The notes: a model not told the origin generated them from the sequence alone. A DNA stretch of 9,108 nt from a virus (IMGVR_UViG_2534681834_000001:1-9108); one strand, 5' to 3'; counted from the stretch's first letter, positions 190-7,443 are shown. Numbers and translations are program-made.

Positions 190-1416
190 TCATCTTGGTA
201 CTTTGCGAACCTGAAGCATCACAACAATATCTGTCTTAGAATTTTCTGATGAACGTGAGCCAAAAATAGACCAACCAGACGAAGATTTAGAATCCTTCTG
301 CTCTGCAAGGCCGCCTATCAAAATAATATCACCATCATTCATAACAACGTCTGTTGTCACATCTCGCTTTAAAAGCGTCGGAGAATTATTAACGCCAGTA
401 TCAGTTGCAACAAAATTAGAAAGCTGCTGTTGAATGTTCAAATCAATAGCGTTGATTTTAATAGATGGTTTCACTCTAAACAAAACCCCTGAGCTACGAT
501 ACTCAACAGACTGAGTTGAATTATTACCATTAACTGTAACACTACCTAAAACAGGAACATCGGCACCTACAGAAAAAGAAGCCTCTGTATTATTCTTCAC
601 GCGCAATCTTGGCGAAGATACAACAGAAAATCTGTTATCAGTTGAAAGTAATGTATAAATTGCATCAATTGAACCTGTTTTTAAACTCAAAAAATCACCA
701 GAAGTACTAACGTTAGAGCCAAGAGAAATATTAAATTTTTCAGATATAACTTTAGCAGCAAGTAAAAATCCTGAGCCATCATTCTGACCAGTCTGAACCT
801 CAAAAACATATCCTGAAACAACAACCTCATCAGGAACCGTATCAATGGTTGGCAATATGCTTTTGATAATGTCAATATCTTTTTGTGTGCCATAATAAAC
901 AAGAGAATCACCTAACCTATTGAAATTATTAGAAGCCCCTGAAGAAGAAGTACTGGATATGTTAGTGCTTATATTTCCTGAATTTCCAAATTGACCAGAT
1001 ACAAAACCAGAGAGAATATCAGACAAATAACCAACTGAACGATTTAATGGAGAATACACAAAAACCTTTAAAATGGGAGGTTTTTCTTGAGGTTTAAAAG
1101 GCGTTATGTAGTCAACACCTTTTTTTGTATGAATTTTAATGTTCATATTAGAAAAATAACGTTCAATAAAATCACGCTCATTAACATCCTTGGTTATTTT
1201 AAATGAAACAAGTCGTTGGTCATTGGCTAAATCAGGAGAAATCATATAAGGAACCTTAAAAACCTCTGAATAAATCAAAGAAATAGCCTCAGGTAAAGCA
1301 AGCTTTTTTATTTCAAGCTCAGTGGCAGAAAAACAAGAAAAACTAAAAACATCAAGCACATATATATTAAACGTTTCATTTGTCACCACCTGAATAAAAA
1401 GTAACAAGCTCACCAT
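190..1416 (-). CDS. Filamentous-phage pIV-like outer-membrane secretin (virion export channel)
   Basis: Final gene of the module, about 410-430 aa, with a secretin-like C-terminal region (…DGDIILIGGLAEQKD…IVVMLQVRKV) whose architecture matches M13 pIV as I recall it. The track ORF begins at a TTG (1479); the first ATG (1414-1416) has an AGGA RBS about 7 nt upstream, so I place the start at 1416, overlapping the pI stop by about 40 nt. Confidence 0.85.
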   Translation of the reverse strand: MVSLLLFIQVVTNETFNIYVLDVFSFSCFSATELEIKKLALPEAISLIYSEVFKVPYMISPDLANDQRLVSFKITKDVNERDFIERYFSNMNIKIHTKKGVDYITPFKPQEKPPILKVFVYSPLNRSVGYLSDILSGFVSGQFGNSGNISTNISSTSSSGASNNFNRLGDSLVYYGTQKDIDIIKSILPTIDTVPDEVVVSGYVFEVQTGQNDGSGFLLAAKVISEKFNISLGSNVSTSGDFLSLKTGSIDAIYTLLSTDNRFSVVSSPRLRVKNNTEASFSVGADVPVLGSVTVNGNNSTQSVEYRSSGVLFRVKPSIKINAIDLNIQQQLSNFVATDTGVNNSPTLLKRDVTTDVVMNDGDIILIGGLAEQKDSKSSSGWSIFGSRSSENSKTDIVVMLQVRKVPR

Positions 1417-2413
1417 CAACAATTCCTGTAAGTAAAACACCTTGATAATTAAAGGTGGAAGCAGGAACCATGCGGACAAGACCTGAATTATTTGTAATTA
1501 TCACATAGCTACGCCCTTCTCTTTCAAGTTTCCCAACGATACGCCAAGTTGAAGATAATTTAGGTGTATTTGGAATTTCAGGAACTGAATTAAAATTAAC
1601 AGAACGTAAATTAGATTCCTGAGGCGGCAAATCAGAAGCATCACTCTTGACCAAACCACCATTAAAAAACCTATAAAGATAACCAATGCTAAATATGAAA
1701 ATGAGAATCATAGCAAGAACAACAAAATACAAACTTTTCTTGCCTAAAATGCTAGCCCGATTATCAACAGTAAGTTCTTTGCCATCCCCATTCTCATATG
1801 ATTTATACAAAGGGAATATATCTGGATTATATTTCCTCTGATAACTTGTAATTTTGTTTGACTTATAAAGTTTAGAACCATTAAAAACATCGACACGATA
1901 ACGACTCTTCATGCCAATAGCAATATGCTTTTGCATTCTAAAAGTAGTATCTAACCTTGCTTTAATAAAACGAGGTAAAGAAGAAACCTCCTGATTTATA
2001 ACAACAAGGTCACAACAAACACCAGTTTCAATATTAGTAAAATGACGATGCTCGGCAATAAATGAACGATGATTCTCACAAATGGATTTATCACTATCCC
2101 AAATGCGCCAAGATTCATCAATAACAATCAAATCTCCATACTGACAAAATGTATCTTCAGGACGAGAATCTTTATATGGGAAAAAATCATCAGCTTTGAC
2201 ATCATCATTAGAAACATAAACAACATCACCTAAAGATATATCTTTCCCCGATTTTGATTTTTTCATGCAATAAGCATGAATTTTATCTTTATTTATACCG
2301 TAAATATTAGTAACAACACGACGCCCAGAAGAACAAGCAGGTACAATAACACTAGAAACAACCTCGTATGATTTACCACTACCTAAAGAACCAACATAAG
2401 CAGAAATAGGCAT
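1376..2413 (-). CDS. Filamentous-phage pI / Zot-family assembly ATPase
   Basis: N-terminal Walker A motif GSLGSGKS, directly comparable to M13 pI GKLGSGKT, a single internal hydrophobic segment (YFVVLAMILIFIFSIGYLY), about 345 aa, and located between pVI and pIV. The track start at 2425 is a TTG; the ATG at 2411-2413 puts the Walker A at the N-terminus as in pI/Zot. Confidence 0.85.
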   Translation of the reverse strand: MPISAYVGSLGSGKSYEVVSSVIVPACSSGRRVVTNIYGINKDKIHAYCMKKSKSGKDISLGDVVYVSNDDVKADDFFPYKDSRPEDTFCQYGDLIVIDESWRIWDSDKSICENHRSFIAEHRHFTNIETGVCCDLVVINQEVSSLPRFIKARLDTTFRMQKHIAIGMKSRYRVDVFNGSKLYKSNKITSYQRKYNPDIFPLYKSYENGDGKELTVDNRASILGKKSLYFVVLAMILIFIFSIGYLYRFFNGGLVKSDASDLPPQESNLRSVNFNSVPEIPNTPKLSSTWRIVGKLEREGRSYVIITNNSGLVRMVPASTFNYQGVLLTGIVDGELVTFYSGGDK

Positions 2414-2417
2414 AAAA

Positions 2418-2711
2418 CTAACCAATAATCGGAATTCTACGAATAATAAAACGAGTAATATATGCGTTAAATATTAACTGAAAACCTTCATTGAACTTAA
2501 ATAAATCAAAAAAATACCACATAGGAGCAGGTAAAGCTCGAAATAAAGCTGGCACGTTAAAATTAAATGGTATCCATGAAGATAATACATAAATGAACTC
2601 ATGAACAACAAAAAGAAGTCCAAAAAACAAAACAAACCTAATGATAACAGTTCTAAAAATAAAACCTAAAAGAACATTAACGATACTAAATAACAATCCA
2701 AATAAAGCCAT
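2418..2711 (-). CDS. pVI-like minor coat protein (hydrophobic, 97 aa)
   Basis: Highly hydrophobic small protein in the pIII-pI slot, with an ATG start and a GAGG RBS. Its stop lies 4 nt before the pI ATG. Assignment is by position and composition only. Confidence 0.6.
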   Translation of the reverse strand: MALFGLLFSIVNVLLGFIFRTVIIRFVLFFGLLFVVHEFIYVLSSWIPFNFNVPALFRALPAPMWYFFDLFKFNEGFQLIFNAYITRFIIRRIPIIG

Positions 2712-2726
2712 TTTAAAACCTCAATG

Positions 2727-4199
2727 TCACGTAGAAAGCAAAATACGCAAGGAAATTAAAGCCCATATCAAAGAAGAAATGACACCAATAAAAGAACGGT
2801 ATTCCTCCAAAAATACGCAATGCATATCAATAACGTAATCTCTATCAAACACATTAAATTTAGCAACAGGACATGTAGCAGAAAGACCTGATGGACGTAC
2901 TTCTAAATCTCGATACTGATTAAAAAGTTCTTTAATTGGACGAAGTATCTCCTCCGCAGAAGGTGGTGTATCTAGCGTCGGTTCCGGCACGTCTGGATGA
3001 CTAAAATCAGGATTATTTGTACCATTATCAGAACCGCCACCTGACTCACCAGAAGAAAATCCAGGCGCACTAATATTCACATCAGAAGATGGTGAATTTT
3101 GAGCTGGATACATATAATCAAATTCTGTCAAAGAACCATAATTAGGATAAGCAACTTTTATTTCATTCGATGTTACAGGATTTGTTGAAGATACAGGGAC
3201 TCCCTGATAATCTGGCTGGGATGCTGCATCCATTAATAAATTATTTATCATCTTAGCAAGAGTATCCAAATCCATAGGGACTTTCTTTAATCCATCCATA
3301 ACAGAAAACCCATCATCATCAGTTGCCATCTTATAATCAGAAAAAAGAATCTCTAGAGCCTTATCAAAATCCTTATTAAAATACACCTGTATACCCTGAA
3401 TAGGAGTAATAGTAGTAGTTATTGACTCACTATCTGTATTTAAATAAGAAGAAGTATAGCTATATTTTACAGACGAGGCCGCCCCCTCTTGTCCTTCATT
3501 TACCGATAAAATATTCAACTTATAGCTACAAGATTTATCAGGTGCCCGGCAAGTTAAACCACCACCTGATGCAACTGAATTAAAATATCCTTGAGCAACC
3601 CCAGTAACAGAACCTACAATAAATGGCCCCTTACAAGATGTACCATAAGTACATTGCCACCAACGATAACCGGCACTTACCTTATCAACAGTATCATAAC
3701 TATTCATATTAAGTGAGTCAGCACTGATGACAAAAGGATTATCAGGAGTTGGTTCAAAATCTACAGTAAACGTTTTATCACCAAAATTAACCTCCCATTT
3801 ACCGTTACCTAAAGCTTTACCAGATGTGGCAATTAAATAACGACCATTATCAGAAAAATTTTCAGCAGTAAGAGACCCAACGGAATATCCAACTCCAGCC
3901 CATGTCAATGCACCTGAAGCACTACGGAAAAAGCCCTTGCTGGCAATAGATGGCGATTTTGACAACACAGTTTTAGATACTGCTGTAGATGTATTCCTAA
4001 CCATTAATGAATAAGCAGATTCGGTAGTCGTTACCTGAAGAGCTCTAGATGAAATCACCCTACCAAGCACAGTTGGAAGAACTGCCCTAGTTACAAGTAA
4101 AGGATTAGAGTAAACTTTCTGCACTGGAATTAATAAAGAGAAAAAAAATATAAAAAGAGATGTTAAAGCGATAACCCTTTGATTACAGCCCAAGCGCAT
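2727..4199 (-). CDS. pIII-like minor coat / adsorption protein (490 aa)
   Basis: N-terminal signal-peptide-like hydrophobic stretch, Cys-containing N-terminal domains, a Gly/Ser-rich linker (SSGESGGGSDNG) and a C-terminal domain with membrane anchor (…CPVAKFNVFDRDYVIDMHCVFLEEYRSFIGVISSLIWALISL…) that resembles the M13 pIII C-terminus pattern C.P..F…IDC…FR. It sits immediately after the pVIII terminator. Confidence 0.75.
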   Translation of the reverse strand: MRLGCNQRVIALTSLFIFFFSLLIPVQKVYSNPLLVTRAVLPTVLGRVISSRALQVTTTESAYSLMVRNTSTAVSKTVLSKSPSIASKGFFRSASGALTWAGVGYSVGSLTAENFSDNGRYLIATSGKALGNGKWEVNFGDKTFTVDFEPTPDNPFVISADSLNMNSYDTVDKVSAGYRWWQCTYGTSCKGPFIVGSVTGVAQGYFNSVASGGGLTCRAPDKSCSYKLNILSVNEGQEGAASSVKYSYTSSYLNTDSESITTTITPIQGIQVYFNKDFDKALEILFSDYKMATDDDGFSVMDGLKKVPMDLDTLAKMINNLLMDAASQPDYQGVPVSSTNPVTSNEIKVAYPNYGSLTEFDYMYPAQNSPSSDVNISAPGFSSGESGGGSDNGTNNPDFSHPDVPEPTLDTPPSAEEILRPIKELFNQYRDLEVRPSGLSATCPVAKFNVFDRDYVIDMHCVFLEEYRSFIGVISSLIWALISLRILLST

Positions 4200-4250
4200 A
4201 AAAGTCCCCAGAAAAAACTCATTAAATACCAGAAATTTAAAATCATAACC

Positions 4251-4276
4251 AAAAAAAGGGGAGAAACTCCCCTTAC
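4251..4276 (-). terminator. Rho-independent terminator downstream of the major coat gene
   Basis: On the minus strand: AAGGGGAG-TTT-CTCCCCTT followed by a run of T, starting about 10 nt after the pVIII stop. This is the same position as the strong terminator after gene VIII in Ff phages. Confidence 0.7.
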
Positions 4277-4285
4277 CTTAATAGA

Positions 4286-4516
4286 TTAAGCCGATTTAAC
4301 TGTACGAAGAATCCAACGAACGCCAGCAATACCAGCATAAAGTACAACTAATGATGCTGCTACGGCCATAATACCAGTAAGAACAGAACCAAAATCAATT
4401 GAATTGGTAAGTTGACTCAAATCAACCCCTGAAGAAGATGTGCCTGGGTCATCAGCAAAAGAAGGCATAGAAAATGAAGCTGCCAGTAATGAACCTAATG
4501 AAATGATCTTTTTCAT
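4286..4516 (-). CDS. pVIII-like major coat protein precursor
   Basis: From MKKIISLGSLLAASFSMPSFA (signal peptide, AxA-like cleavage before DDPG) the mature ~55-aa protein has an acidic N-terminus, hydrophobic core and basic C-terminus (RWILRTVKSA), the hallmark of inovirus major coat proteins. GGTGG RBS before the ATG at 4514-4516; the track's longer start at 4537 is less likely. Confidence 0.85.
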   Translation of the reverse strand: MKKIISLGSLLAASFSMPSFADDPGTSSSGVDLSQLTNSIDFGSVLTGIMAVAASLVVLYAGIAGVRWILRTVKSA

Positions 4517-4529
4517 AAAAATCCACCAT

Positions 4530-4757
4530 TTATGCATTTCGTATTAACTTGATAATCAAGCTGATGCAATGTGAAAATAAATACAAAGCAACAACCGAAG
4601 TAAAAGCAACCCCCCAATATTGAGCAAATATTGAATAATCAATATCAGAGAATTGCTGGTATGGAATCTCAGAAAAAATTAACTTGACTTCCTTACAGTC
4701 ACCACTGGGTTTAATATCACAAATAGAGGCAATAATAACTTTATCATGAGATTCCAT
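4530..4757 (-). CDS. Small membrane protein (75 aa) at the pVII/pIX position; function unknown
   Basis: Single ORF between pV and pVIII with a C-terminal hydrophobic segment (WGVAFTSVVALYLFSHCISLIIKLI). Ff phages have two ~32-aa proteins (pVII, pIX) in this slot; here there is one longer protein. Assignment is positional only. Confidence 0.5.
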   Translation of the reverse strand: MESHDKVIIASICDIKPSGDCKEVKLIFSEIPYQQFSDIDYSIFAQYWGVAFTSVVALYLFSHCISLIIKLIRNA

Positions 4758-4763
4758 AACTTA

Positions 4764-5036
4764 TCACTTTTCTGCAATAGGAATTAAAACAATCTTACCA
4801 ATACGTAATTTTTGAAAGTCACCAACAAAAATACTGGAAGGATGCAACTGATACAAACCAGCCGGATATGGAGCCTGGCCTTGTTCAAGAGGAATTTTAA
4901 ATAGTTGAGGGTAATCCCCACCGAGGAAAATATAACCAGACTGTTCAGATATCGTATATGGTTTACCAGTGTTCTTAGAAACACCACTACGAGTATCTGC
5001 AACAGCTTGAGTAGGTTTAATTTCAATCTTAATCAT
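4764..5036 (-). CDS. pV-like ssDNA-binding protein (90 aa)
   Basis: The translation MIKIEIKPTQAVADTRSGVSKNTGKPYTISEQSGYIFLGGDYPQLFKIPLEQGQAPYPAGLYQLHPSSIFVGDF… aligns along its length with M13 gene V protein (MIKVEIKPSQAQFTTRSGVSRQGKPYSLNEQLCYVDLGNEYPVLVKITLDEGQPAYAPGLYTVHLSSFKVGQF…, from memory). AGGTG RBS; start 13 nt after the pII stop. Confidence 0.9.
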   Translation of the reverse strand: MIKIEIKPTQAVADTRSGVSKNTGKPYTISEQSGYIFLGGDYPQLFKIPLEQGQAPYPAGLYQLHPSSIFVGDFQKLRIGKIVLIPIAEK

Positions 5037-5049
5037 AATACACCTAATG

Positions 5050-6165
5050 TTAAGCTACACGTAAATAAGACGGCTTTATATACCAAGAAGGAATAACACA
5101 ATCCGAAACAGTTATTTCTCTTGTTTGTTTCACAACAACAGGAGAGAATTTAGAGACATTACATTTTTGAGCAATATCAATACCAATCTTCCTTAACCTT
5201 GCTCGATGTGTCTGGACTTGCTTTTTATTTAAATCAAAAATATGACCGTGAAACCATTGAATTGCATACATGGCTGTAGTATTGGCAGCACGAGTAGTGT
5301 CAACAACACCACGACTAATAAGATGTTCACTAATAGTTTCAAAGTCCATAGCATTCACCGATAACTTTTCATCAAGCTCAAGAAATTCAGAATGTAACTT
5401 ATTTAACAAAGAATAATCAGAAAGTCCCCAATAGCACATGGATTTTTTTTGAAGAAAACGAGACTTTAATTTTTGCTCAAACCTGACAATGCCGTTGTCC
5501 TTGCAGTAATTAATGACATCCATTATATAATTAAATTCTTTAGAATCCTCTGAGAATTTATTTTTGATTTTCGCAAGGCTATGCAACTCAAGCTCATGAG
5601 CTTTGTTATATACTGTTGGGTATATAAGATTGACATTGCCTTTTTTTGAAAGCCAGTCAACGGATTTCCCATTGGAATGCAACCGTGGAATACTATTCCT
5701 GTAAGGTTGAGTAGAAAGACCTGATATATAATCATCCTCATTCCCCTTCCCTACTGATTTGTTTGATGTTATATGCAGTTCTTTAATTAAAGCACCATCA
5801 GTAATCAAATGAGCTTTTTCATTCTCTTTCGATTGTCCAGGCATTAACTTTGTACACTTGGTAAATAAAGGTAATTTCAGTTCAGTTAGAATCTGATTAA
5901 ATACCATGACACAAGCATCTACAGTCGGAAGCCCAAAAAGATTATCAAGACGTCCCCAGCGGGACGGATTTCCAGTCATTTTTAACACTGAACCACGGAT
6001 CGAGATTGAAACAACATCACAGAAAGAGCCACGATGCTGGAAGGTTGGTTGAGATAATGCGCTAGCCTCCCCGCTTTCAAGATGTATACGCTGATAAGCT
6101 ACATCGCTCAGTATCGGCAACTGATAGCCGAAATCCTGTTCGATAGTTAACCAGTCGTAAAACAT
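5050..6165 (-). CDS. pII-like rolling-circle replication initiator (nickase)
   Basis: First and largest gene of the module, directly upstream of pV. The internal segment DNGIVRFEQKLKSRFLQ matches M13 gII SGLVRFEARIKTRYLK (from memory). The track start at 6177 is a TTG; the first ATG (6163-6165) is preceded by a GAGAG RBS. Confidence 0.85.
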   Translation of the reverse strand: MFYDWLTIEQDFGYQLPILSDVAYQRIHLESGEASALSQPTFQHRGSFCDVVSISIRGSVLKMTGNPSRWGRLDNLFGLPTVDACVMVFNQILTELKLPLFTKCTKLMPGQSKENEKAHLITDGALIKELHITSNKSVGKGNEDDYISGLSTQPYRNSIPRLHSNGKSVDWLSKKGNVNLIYPTVYNKAHELELHSLAKIKNKFSEDSKEFNYIMDVINYCKDNGIVRFEQKLKSRFLQKKSMCYWGLSDYSLLNKLHSEFLELDEKLSVNAMDFETISEHLISRGVVDTTRAANTTAMYAIQWFHGHIFDLNKKQVQTHRARLRKIGIDIAQKCNVSKFSPVVVKQTREITVSDCVIPSWYIKPSYLRVA

Positions 6166-6177
6166 AGAATCTCTCAA

Positions 6178-6360
6178 TCATTCAAGATGAGCCGCAAGGC
6201 TCAACACTGATACTTAACGGTATCAATAATGCTATTATCAAACATAACAGACGTCAATGGTATTGATACTAACAAATATCAAAACTGACCCTACAGATTC
6301 AGCTATGAAAAATGGAGGTTAAAATTAAGACTTTGCAATCAGCATGAGAAGGCAGCAGAT
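6178..6360. promoter_or_regulatory. Divergent promoter/operator region between pII (minus) and the HTH regulator (plus); possibly also the plus-strand origin
   Basis: 183-bp AT-rich intergenic spacer between divergent genes. Candidate sigma70 elements for the regulator: TTCAGC (6298-6303), 16-nt spacer, TAAAAT (6320-6325), then an AGAAGG RBS. Candidate for pII on the minus strand: TTGACG (rc of 6252-6257), 17-nt spacer, TAGCAT (rc of 6229-6234). The motifs are weak matches. Confidence 0.5.
6205..6285. repeat. Cluster of TATCAA / TTGATA hexamers (putative operator or iteron sites)
   Basis: TATCAA at about 6221, 6236 and 6276; inverted TTGATA at about 6263; inverted pair TGATAC-N6-GTATCA at 6208-6225; GTATTGATAC at 6260-6269. 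They overlap the candidate pII promoter elements. Confidence 0.4.
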
Positions 6361-6849
6361 ATGGCAGTAGACAAAGAGTGTGCAGAACGTATACGTCTGT
6401 CTATCATCCAAAATTTTACATATGACGATATCGAAAATGAAACAGGTATCAGCGTCAGTACCCTTAAACGGCTGGCTTCTGGAGAAAGGGAACCCAAATT
6501 AATAGAAATCAGGAAGATAGCTAAAGCGACAGGAAAAAATCCGGTATGGTTAGCATTCGGTGAGTCAACCCTGCCTCTGCCTGAGAACCTTGGCGAAGAT
6601 ATGACTGCTTTTGGTTACGGTATGGATTTTAAGTTACAAGGTCATGAAGCAGGTGAAGCGGCGGCGAAAATCCGCCTGATGGCCGCGATCCGGGACATAG
6701 AGAAAGATGATGTTGTTTTTCTGGAAAAATTTATAGACTTGCTGAATCTGGATCGCACAATAAACAGCGTCAAAACCAAACGTTACGGCTACACAGAAGA
6801 AGAAACGCTGAAAAGACTAAACCTTCCCCAGCCGAAGGGGAAAAAGTAA
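6361..6849 (+). CDS. XRE/Cro-CI-type helix-turn-helix transcriptional regulator (putative prophage repressor, 162 aa)
   Basis: N-terminal HTH signature (…TYDDIENETGISVSTLKRLASGEREPKLIEIRKIAKATGKNPVWLAFGE…) typical of phage repressors, with a C-terminal ~90 aa I do not recognise. It is transcribed divergently from pII, like rstR versus rstA in CTXphi, and is noticeably more GC-rich than the structural module. Confidence 0.8.
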   Translation: MAVDKECAERIRLSIIQNFTYDDIENETGISVSTLKRLASGEREPKLIEIRKIAKATGKNPVWLAFGESTLPLPENLGEDMTAFGYGMDFKLQGHEAGEAAAKIRLMAAIRDIEKDDVVFLEKFIDLLNLDRTINSVKTKRYGYTEEETLKRLNLPQPKGKK

Positions 6850-6852
6850 AAA

Positions 6853-6909
6853 TACCGTGGGAAACCACGGTAAAGTTCGGGTGTCACAGAACCCCGAACC
6901 GCTTCGCGG
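6853..6909 (+). other. Three consecutive GC-rich stem-loops immediately after the regulator stop (terminator-like, or ssDNA origin/packaging hairpins)
   Basis: TACCGTGG-GAAA-CCACGGTA (6853-6872; 8-bp stem with a GNRA-type loop), GTTCGGG-N11-CCCGAAC (6875-6899), and CCGC-TTC-GCGG (6899-6909). None is followed by a T-run, so they are not classical intrinsic terminators. Confidence 0.4.
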
Positions 6910-7348
6910 TACAAATTTTAACCAAATGAAGAAAAAAAGACCATGCTTAAAAAAGATGGAAAAAGGAAAAAATAGTTGTTATTGAAAAAGCCAACTGCTT
7001 AGACTGCGAACAATTATCAGAAAGAATAGTTGAAAAAATCAAAGAGACAGAAGCATTAATAGAATGCCCTATTGGAGAACTGGACTTTCAATACATCGTC
7101 ATGAATGAAGCCAAAGCATATGCTATAAGAAAAAGAAAAAGATTTATATTTCAAAGGGTTAGCATATGATTTTGAAGGGGGTGAAAAAGCAGAATGGACA
7201 AGAAATTTAAGGGATGCACTCATATTCGATGATGAAAGAAAAGCAGCAATGATGATAAGGATAATGACATTCCCAAGAATGAATTATGAAATAGTTCCTT
7301 TAATCTACAAAGTAGATCCTCTATTCAAATCTGAAAAATAAAAATTTT

Positions 7349-7375
7349 GGTACGCACAATGGCGTTATGTATAAA
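7349..7375 (+). other. dif-like XerC/XerD site A (phage attP-type, degenerate)
   Basis: GGTACGCACAA-TGGCG-TTATGTATAAA against E. coli dif GGTGCGCATAA-TGTATA-TTATGTTAAAT (from memory): XerC arm 9/11, XerD arm 8/11, 5-nt central region. It lies in inverted orientation to site B on the other side of the hairpin. Confidence 0.5.
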
Positions 7376-7413
7376 AAGGCCGCTGCCGGATGAAAGTCTA
7401 GCAGCGGCCTTTT
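7374..7413. terminator. Perfect 13-bp stem-loop, bidirectional terminator-like; core of the putative attP forked hairpin
   Basis: AAAAGGCCGCTGC (7374-7386), 14-nt loop, GCAGCGGCCTTTT (7401-7413). A GC-rich stem with a T-run on either strand, about 105 nt downstream of the hipA stop, so it likely terminates hipBA transcripts and plus-strand transcripts from the phage side. Confidence 0.6.
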
Positions 7414-7443
7414 CAACATAACGCATACTACATTATGCGCACC
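7411..7443 (-). other. dif-like XerCD recombination site B (host-type XerC arm; putative prophage-chromosome junction at dif)
   Basis: Minus strand reads GGTGCGCATAA-TGTAGTATGCG-TTATGTTGAAA: the XerC arm is 11/11 to E. coli dif and the first 4 nt of the central region (TGTA) also match, then it diverges; a XerD-like arm (9/11) follows after an 11-nt rather than 6-nt central region. It is about 75-110 bp downstream of the hipA stop, where I recall the chromosomal dif of E. coli K-12 to lie. Confidence 0.6.

Follow-up and report, generated by a model that had tools for sequence, protein, structure and literature searches.

Replication origins of filamentous phages and the setting of the locus

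To our knowledge, very few origins of filamentous phages have been determined by experiment, essentially those of Ff with its close relatives and that of CTXphi. In M13 the nick is located in the loop of hairpin D (GTTCTTT^AATA). The Ff minus origin, which is recognised by RNA polymerase, consists of two long hairpins, B and C, that mimic -35 and -10 elements, and for packaging Ff has a single long, imperfect hairpin (~78 nt) that is located beyond gene IV and is specific to the assembly proteins of the phage. Nick hairpins of other HUH systems include IR-II of pT181 and the nonanucleotide hairpin of geminiviruses and circoviruses. In CTXphi the intergenic region ig-1 occupies the space from att to the 3' end of rstR, and RstA has its nick site there (PMC8265649, PMC4439123); the plus strand is nicked between a G and a T in the apical loop of a hairpin (PMC4439123, PMC8265649).

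The locus described here belongs to a filamentous (inovirus) prophage beside hipBA. The window, i.e. the whole stretch of DNA that was analysed (9,108 nt), is part of an E. coli chromosome. On its minus strand (190-6177) we found, in the order of transcription, the genes for a gpII-type Rep, ssDNA-binding, coat, pIII-like, pVI-like, Zot/pI and secretin proteins, and because the phage genes lie on this strand we take the minus strand of the window to be the viral (packaged) strand. The region of interest, 6850-7345, is situated between an HTH regulator gene and a double-dif att hairpin and is made up of two parts, a conserved hairpin element that most likely serves replication, and a cargo gene that is dead. 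The relevant features are as follows:

5050..6177, minus strand: gpII-type Rep (Pfam Phage_CRI and G2P_X_C), which sets the viral strand
6361..6849, plus strand: HTH_3 regulator, divergent from rep, with its stop codon 3 nt before SL1
6853-6910: hairpin element of three stem-loops, first part of the region
6853..6872, minus strand: SL1, 8-bp stem TACCGTGG/CCACGGTA with 6853-6860 paired with 6865-6872, loop GAAA at 6861-6864 (TTTC on the viral strand), read from the sequence
6875..6899, minus strand: SL2, 7-bp stem GTTCGGG/CCCGAAC with 6875-6881 paired with 6893-6899, 11-nt loop TGTCACAGAAC at 6882-6892, of TGCTCACAGAAC type (GTTCTGTGACA on the viral strand), read from the sequence
6899..6910, minus strand: SL3, G+C-rich mini-hairpin of 4-5 bp, CCGC-TTC-GCGG, with 6899/6900-6902 paired with 6906-6909/6910 and loop TTC (the viral strand contains GCGAAGC), read from the sequence
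6943..7341, plus strand: A-rich remainder, second part of the region, a pseudogene of a 133-aa cargo ORF (P0001 family) with two frameshifts, from six-frame translation and alignments with intact copies
~7346..7443, minus strand: CTXphi-like attP/dif forked hairpin with two dif-like sites, DNA fold -35 kcal/mol, z -8.4

The attP/dif hairpin forms the far border of a cargo slot, and hipA and hipB come next. A preliminary description of the region had called it AT-rich and free of long ORFs, which we can confirm: the G+C content ranges from 0.32 to 0.39 across 6850-7345, the plus strand is A-rich, and the longest ORFs are 42 aa on the plus and 55 aa on the minus strand. The same description had likened the region to the Ff intergenic region and to CTXphi ig-1, and by position this analogy holds, ig-1 being placed between att and the 3' end of rstR. 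The other intergenic stretch, between rep and the regulator gene (6178-6360), contains a GAGCC-GCAA-GGCTC hairpin, the inverted repeats GGTATCAATA ... TATTGATAC, which are operator-like in look, and two weak promoter-like matches facing each other.

Structure and sequence conservation of the hairpin element

The three stem-loops that had been proposed, the first with a GAAA tetraloop, can be read directly from the sequence, and 6853-6910 folds with a z-score of about -4 on either strand. As minus-strand DNA the fold reaches -16.7 kcal/mol (z -4.19) and as plus-strand RNA -28.8 kcal/mol (z -4.10); in each case none of 200 shuffled sequences folded equally well. On the viral strand the order is GTTCGGG-GTTCTGTGACA-CCCGAAC, TTTA, CCGTGG-TTTC-CCACGG. 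For 6913-7345 single-strand structure of minus-strand DNA was not significant (z -1.57). The covariance models of Rfam 15 gave no match to the hairpins (6850-6912), even at E <= 10, and nothing indicates the small RNA that had been considered for this region. Sub-threshold Rfam matches to eukaryotic and archaeal snoRNA models at ~7213-7307 are put down to chance, and a search of the rest of the window for a kissing-loop partner of the SL2 loop returned matches only at chance level.

The alignment used for covariation comprises 39 distinct variants, with 500 shuffles as control. Overall 94% of the cells are paired, a covariation score as high as the observed one was reached by none of the shuffles, and the signal is lost when the pairing partners are slid. 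In SL1 compensatory changes were found at all six inner pairs, with GAAA, GAAT, AATT, ATGT, GTTA and ACTT as loops, which are of the GNRA type in the enteric group. SL3 shows changes on both sides at all three of its pairs; its loop varies (TTC, TAG, AA, TCC, TGC), it is missing in several lineages, and it is thus an optional flanking hairpin. The preliminary description had named missing conservation of the hairpins as the observation that would overturn its proposal; the hairpins are conserved and covary, so this objection falls away. Among the single-step mismatches of SL1 on the plus strand, G-T and C-A occur in roughly equal numbers of lineages. As C-A on the plus strand corresponds to G-T on the minus strand, wobble pairs are about equally frequent on both strands, which does not fit a role in RNA only.

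The SL2 stem and most of its loop are invariant in the 39 variants. Invariance of the stem in this main set is partly an artefact, because the search pattern fixed SL2; a scan in which the SL2 stem was left free gave just one more stem variant. More distant relatives (Pseudomonas phages WX-Y and 36-2, phage silverpheasant213 and Vibrio cyclitrophicus phages), with Reps of 35-47% identity, have the SL2 stem replaced with compensation, by GTGGGGG/CCCCCAC, TGGGGG/CCCCCA or TTGGG/CCCAA. The loop core on the viral strand, CTGT(T/G/A)ACA, is kept in these Pseudomonas, silverpheasant213 and Vibrio phages, and a tetraloop hairpin is retained 4-5 nt downstream of SL2 on the same strand. In several variants (L002, L019, L021, L077) the CTG of the loop is replaced by CAG, and the G-T step is the sole dinucleotide of the SL2 loop that never varies. 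SL2 thus combines a fixed loop with a variable stem, and the hairpins that flank it are purely structural.

Distribution of the element

The hairpin element recurs as ~60 sequence variants. Carriers among phages are If1, Alteromonas phiAFP1, Dulem virus 53, inoviruses from human saliva and Pseudomonas phages; the If1 copy is annotated only as 'major intergenic region'. We found the element in 33 inovirus contigs of IMG/VR and in genomes of Yersinia, Lelliottia, Pectobacterium, Erwinia and Pantoea (Enterobacterales), Vibrio, Salinivibrio, Aeromonadaceae, Neptuniibacter, Marinobacterium and Cellvibrionaceae. As many as 694 E. coli records match the first 60-85 bases of 6850-7345, while the remainder gave no such match. 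Neither the motif, written as text in both orientations and both variants, nor any account of the element was found in the searchable literature, and the phiAFP1 paper does not discuss origins.

There is one element per phage unit, tandem prophages carrying one each (L027, L070). Tandem or repeated prophages with the element were seen in several genomes, namely L027 (two copies 7.3 kb apart), L070, L072/L086 and L091. A tandem arrangement of prophages is what CTXphi needs to produce virions from the chromosome.

Matches to the element also occur in CRISPR loci. A spacer of Zobellella taiwanensis (L099, NZ_PXYH01000003.1, ~4926-4948) corresponds to the linker and SL2; the array has at least 83 repeats of 29 nt with spacers of 32 nt. 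Similar matches were found twice between repeats in Shewanella profunda (L104, 695-717 and 4606-4628). With these spacers the hosts thus aim at that part of the inoviruses which is most conserved.

Position of the element relative to rep and the regulator gene

In 64 of 86 occurrences the element is adjoined by a gpII-type Rep gene (PF05144 and PF05155), invariably on the opposite strand in window orientation, and is located upstream of rep on the viral strand, at a distance of 54-1482 nt from the rep start; occurrences with no adjoining gpII-type Rep are mostly contig ends or relics borne by insertion sequences (IS). At most loci SL1 starts 0-10 nt from the stop codon of the regulator gene and a cargo gene on the same strand as the regulator begins 30-130 nt past SL3. 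A Cellvibrionaceae prophage (L068) is arranged differently: here the element precedes the start codon of rep by 20-70 nt, and the regulator gene starts on the other side. Because of this arrangement we regard the element as tied to rep rather than to the 3' end of the regulator gene.

The element also coincides with mosaic breakpoints. Identity between the window and a contig of E. coli (L122) extends over 5603-6910, the two diverging from 6911, and in two further loci (L003, L012) similarity to the window breaks at or inside the element. The Rep of L012 is 96% identical to that of the window, yet SL1 differs at four of six pairs. SL1 does not follow Rep identity, and we therefore rejected the idea that Rep recognises SL1 by its sequence; a candidate for Rep binding could be the stem of SL2, which is invariant.

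In two CTX-like Vibrio loci the element lies beside a Rep_trans-type RstA and the canonical CTX ig-1 origin. In V. cholerae JS9803 (L006, AF416590.1, 1876-2032) a CTX-like ig-1 holds the element between two 33-nt direct repeats of ig-1 sequence. In the second locus (L011, 2840-3035) RstA shares 99% identity with the CTXphi protein and is accompanied by a different regulator, the element and the start of the CTX ig-1.

Comparison with described origins

We checked the M13 sequence at 5767-5836, where the stem of hairpin D measures 7 bp and its loop, GTTCTTTAATA, 11 nt (AGTCCAC-GTTCTTT^AATA-GTGGACT). SL2 of the window likewise has a 7-bp stem and an 11-nt loop, and both loops begin with GTTCT. 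In M13 a tetraloop hairpin, E, follows 3 nt later, and in the window the tetraloop hairpin SL1 follows SL2 after 4 nt, so that SL1, as an accessory to SL2 located 3' of it on the viral strand, is comparable to hairpin E. The Rep belongs to the same family (Phage_CRI/G2P), and in both systems the hairpins are located on the viral strand upstream of rep. They differ in the remainder of the loop (TTAATA in M13, GTGACA in the window) and in that a divergent regulator gene separates the hairpins from rep in the window. A counterpart of the gpII-binding repeats was not identified in the window, and its hairpins have no adjoining long minus-origin or packaging hairpins.

The map of CTXphi is the same, with att, ig-1 or the cargo slot, the origin hairpin, the 3' end of the repressor gene and rep in this order, and CTXphi also uses Xer/dif integration. 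By our own placement of the published description, the CTXphi nick hairpin is ACCCCCG-TCTAG^TATTA-CGGGGGT, ~75 nt from the rstR stop codon. Both systems have a G+C-rich stem of 7-8 bp and a loop of ~10 nt with a G-T step, followed by a small hairpin (PMC4439123). In contrast to the window, RstA is a Rep_trans protein (PF02486) and not of the gpII type, the loop sequence is TCTAGTATTA, the CTX origin comprises 167 bp and requires HU, and canonical CTXphi does not contain the element. Canonical CTXphi (L043, ~879-888) does contain CTGTGACAC, identical to the SL2 loop/stem junction on the viral strand, 14 nt 3' of the hairpin with the published nick, which may reflect either coincidence or a common recognition.

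The primase-dependent priming signals (G sites) of phage G4 and of plasmids resemble the element in that a single-stranded phage genome carries three short hairpins and in that these are strongly conserved from replicon to replicon. The element differs from them in that no CTG is found 3' of the last hairpin and in that it is not present in ordinary plasmid backbones. The hairpins of pT181 (IR-II) and of geminiviruses and circoviruses are alike in design only, i.e. in having a conserved loop motif, a covarying stem and Reps of low identity; Rep families and motifs are different.

A candidate plus-strand origin and alternative functions

A plus-strand origin was absent from the preliminary description and fits the observations best. 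We therefore propose, giving it about an even chance of being correct, that the three hairpins form the core of the plus-strand (rolling-circle) origin of the phage on the minus, i.e. viral, strand. This is the best explanation because of the Ff-like stem, loop length and hairpin order, the map position shared with CTXphi and the invariant G-T step. The element is non-coding, is located upstream of an HUH Rep on the viral strand and is present in one copy, and its large-loop hairpin (SL2, 7-bp stem, 11-nt loop) is followed after 4 nt by a small one (SL1). Judged from the alignments, a fixed loop core that extends from E. coli phages to Pseudomonas and Vibrio phages on a covarying stem is the pattern of a nick hairpin. 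The wobble mismatches on both strands and the mosaic breakpoints at the element count in favour of this origin as well. Under this proposal SL2 would be extruded or exposed as a single strand, and the gpII-type Rep would nick the 11-nt loop, likely at the invariant G-T of CTG^T(K)ACA. In the window this would place the nick, as a guess, on the minus strand between the complements of 6887 and 6886 (CTG^TGACA). The free 3' OH would then prime synthesis toward SL1, the regulator gene (antisense) and rep, and one round later the regenerated SL2 would serve as termination and ligation signal. SL1 and SL3 may act as structural helper hairpins. The ~430 bp remainder is outside the origin; it is a dead cargo gene in a variable slot that reaches from the origin to attP. 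We infer nicking, the nick position and any dependence on Rep from these likenesses.

Two observations argue against the plus-strand origin. SL1 does not track Rep, and in the two CTX-like loci the element lies beside RstA, where an origin of the gpII type should be useless. In addition, the SL2 loop is near-identical across Reps down to ~31-35% identity, which a conserved host enzyme explains at least as easily. Taken together, the behaviour of SL1, the loop shared by divergent Reps and the two CTX-like loci favour a site for a host enzyme, i.e. a minus-strand (complementary-strand) origin, in which the hairpins would fold on SSB-coated viral ssDNA and DnaG primase, RNA polymerase or PriA would lay the primer for conversion to the replicative form. 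Almost identical elements beside Reps of 31-50% identity in hosts of several orders point to such a conserved host enzyme, and the element is retained beside an unrelated RstA for which a separate plus origin is present. Three short ssDNA hairpins are also found in oric of phage G4, the loop contains CTG, the start triplet of E. coli primase, in most variants, and the position is compatible, the Ff minus origin being located directly 5' of hairpin D. The known types of minus origin, as suggested in the preliminary description, are nevertheless a poor match. With regard to G4, SL1 is followed on the viral strand by TATTTTTAC, with no CTG 3' of the last hairpin, the only CTG sits in the SL2 loop and is CAG in several variants, and a sequence comparison with G4 oric revealed no likeness. 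With regard to Ff, the hairpins of 11-25 nt are much shorter than B and C, and no promoter-like match occurs in 6850-6912 on either strand. Plasmids lack the element except for inovirus prophages and one lineage of IS passengers, which speaks against a general plasmid priming signal. If the element were a minus origin, it would thus be one of a new kind, and this part of the earlier suggestion stands as a rather unlikely reading. An unlikely extension of it is a new class of complementary-strand origin that shows the loop CTGT(K)ACA to a host enzyme, e.g. primase at CTG, and that together with attP brackets a defence slot, the content of which passes back and forth between inoviruses and those IS of the IS1202 family that target dif. 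If true, this would explain why the element is shared across at least five gamma-proteobacterial orders whatever the Rep, RstA-type CTX relatives included.

Functions apart from replication appear less probable still. An RNA element at the 3' end of the regulator mRNA (terminator, attenuator, processing or stabilising site) would shield the regulator from the cargo gene that follows, or adjust the joint expression of the two. The position of SL1 within 0-10 nt of the regulator stop, the same-strand cargo gene after SL3, the GNRA loop of SL1 in the enteric group, the RNA fold (z -4.1) and a T-run after SL2 in Dulem virus 53 are consistent with it. It is improbable in view of the variable SL1 loop, the C-A mismatches on the plus strand that are as frequent as G-U pairs, the hairpins having no match in Rfam, and a strict conservation of the SL2 loop that is superfluous for termination or stability; the terminator of the regulator transcript considered earlier is made unlikely by the plus strand, which has no conserved U-tract, and by L068, where the element is upstream of the regulator gene and beside rep. 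We regard it as highly improbable that the hairpins are a packaging (morphogenesis) signal on the viral strand or a terminator of the long minus-strand operon. The Ff packaging hairpin lies in the equivalent intergenic region, and SL1 on the minus strand is followed by TTTTTACTTT and was the one terminator-like site in a scan, which gave none on the plus strand. This T-run, however, is present after SL1 in only about half of the variants and stems from Lys codons in the tail of the regulator gene. The packaging signal, one of the candidates in the preliminary description, is not borne out as a leading one, since the hairpins are far smaller than the ~78-nt Ff signal and near-identical in phages with very different morphogenesis genes; phiAFP1 and the window, for example, have unrelated coat and assembly genes.

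Returning to the plus-strand origin, this type of origin is known as such, and the element appears to be a new member of it. Most likely it is the site at which plus-strand synthesis begins in a large group of inoviruses that integrate at dif. The 25-nt hairpin, whose loop hardly varies from If1 to inoviruses of Alteromonas, Vibrio and Pseudomonas, offers an easily tested candidate origin for a large group of Xer-integrating prophages. The element can furthermore serve as a sharp sequence tag for finding such prophages, and marks the left border of their cargo slot.

The cargo slot and its pseudogene

In inoviruses the slot between the element and attP carries genes for Shedu, SIR2-like, TIR or AbiJ-like proteins or unknown small genes, and it looks like a hot spot for defence genes. 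Downstream of the element a Shedu (SduA), a SIR2-like (PADLOC PDC-S25) or a TIR-domain protein is encoded in L021 (714-1523), L077, L069 and L093. The two conserved flanks probably allow recombination to replace one cargo by another, in agreement with the breaks in similarity that are seen at the element.

In the window the slot is occupied by the pseudogene 6943-7341, in line with the decayed gene that had been suspected in the A-rich part. The same DNA contains an intact ORF of 133 aa in near-identical phages, namely an IMG/VR prophage (L012, 108-509(-)) and the E. coli contig L122 (1340-1741), which were used for the alignments. The reading frame of the window starts with the ATG at 6943 and is shifted by -1 in the A-run 6967-6972, so that a TAG is reached at 6973-6975; through the middle of the gene a different frame stays open, as far as 7167; an indel of -2 near 7142 restores the first frame, whose last 68 codons end with the TAA at 7339-7341. 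L122 has one A fewer at 6932, one A more in 6967-6972 and two extra bases after 7142, along with a cluster of substitutions at 7112-7170; owing to these indels the ATG at 6943 of the window runs into the TAG. The A-run 6932-6938, just before the cargo ATG, has 7 A in the window and 6 in both L012 and L122, and with this third homopolymer difference, sequencing error may have played a part in the A-runs. We classify the gene as a pseudogene because read-through needs a -1 and then a +1 shift. For the same reason, and as near-identical phages have a plain ORF, programmed frameshifting of the cargo gene was rejected.

An open frame at 7063-7341 had been read by hand in the preliminary description and was distrusted there. 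It does not form a single ORF: frame 0 closes with the stop at 7165-7167, the frame that ends at 7341 opens only at ~7137, and the two overlap at ~7137-7167 as halves of one frameshifted gene. A six-frame recheck justified the distrust, and since 7063-7341 consists of two frames, the supplied ORF track is right.

The P0001 family, to which the intact copies belong, accounts for 11 representative clusters among 1.84 billion. Its conserved motifs are WTxNLRDA and VPLIYQVDP; both are encoded in the third piece of the window copy, which has no uninterrupted ORF of ~130 aa. Members of the family are found in the equivalent slot of other prophages (L002/L026, L041, L071).

Copies of the slot in insertion sequences and plasmids

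On ColV, IncHI1A and related plasmids the element is located inside an ISKpn21-like IS of the IS1202 family. The order is left inverted repeat, transposase, SL1 remnant with SL2 and SL3, defence gene, first arm and central hairpin of attP, and right inverted repeat; the passenger gene differs by copy and is AbiJ-like, Shedu or TIR. Thus the cargo slot has been copied into an IS that is spreading on ColV and IncHI plasmids. Targeting of XerCD sites and carriage of passengers have been described for the IS1202 family (bioRxiv 10.1101/2022.12.17.520857, PMC10132070). Copies were found in a ColV-type plasmid (L004, NZ_CP033091.2, 2376-5190), in the IncHI1A plasmid p10068 (L118, 1860-4435) and in L120 (1400-2546), and the first of these shows a 5-bp target duplication, AACAT, beside a dif-like site. 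The possibility that the plasmid matches reflect a general priming signal was rejected, because the matches belong either to inovirus prophages that reside on plasmids (L119) or to the passenger of the ISKpn21-like IS.

In the chromosome of E. coli G5 (L121, 2300-4610) an IS of the ISKpn21 family with a DUF6904 passenger is situated 5 bp from dif at the end of a related prophage, with the duplication AATAT; here IS and phage compete for the same dif site. ORF348 of phage If1, located in the major intergenic region (L001, 1369-2415), encodes a protein of the IS605 OrfB/TnpB type (PF01385 and a Cas12f1-like TNB domain), and the classical If1 genome therefore carries an IS.
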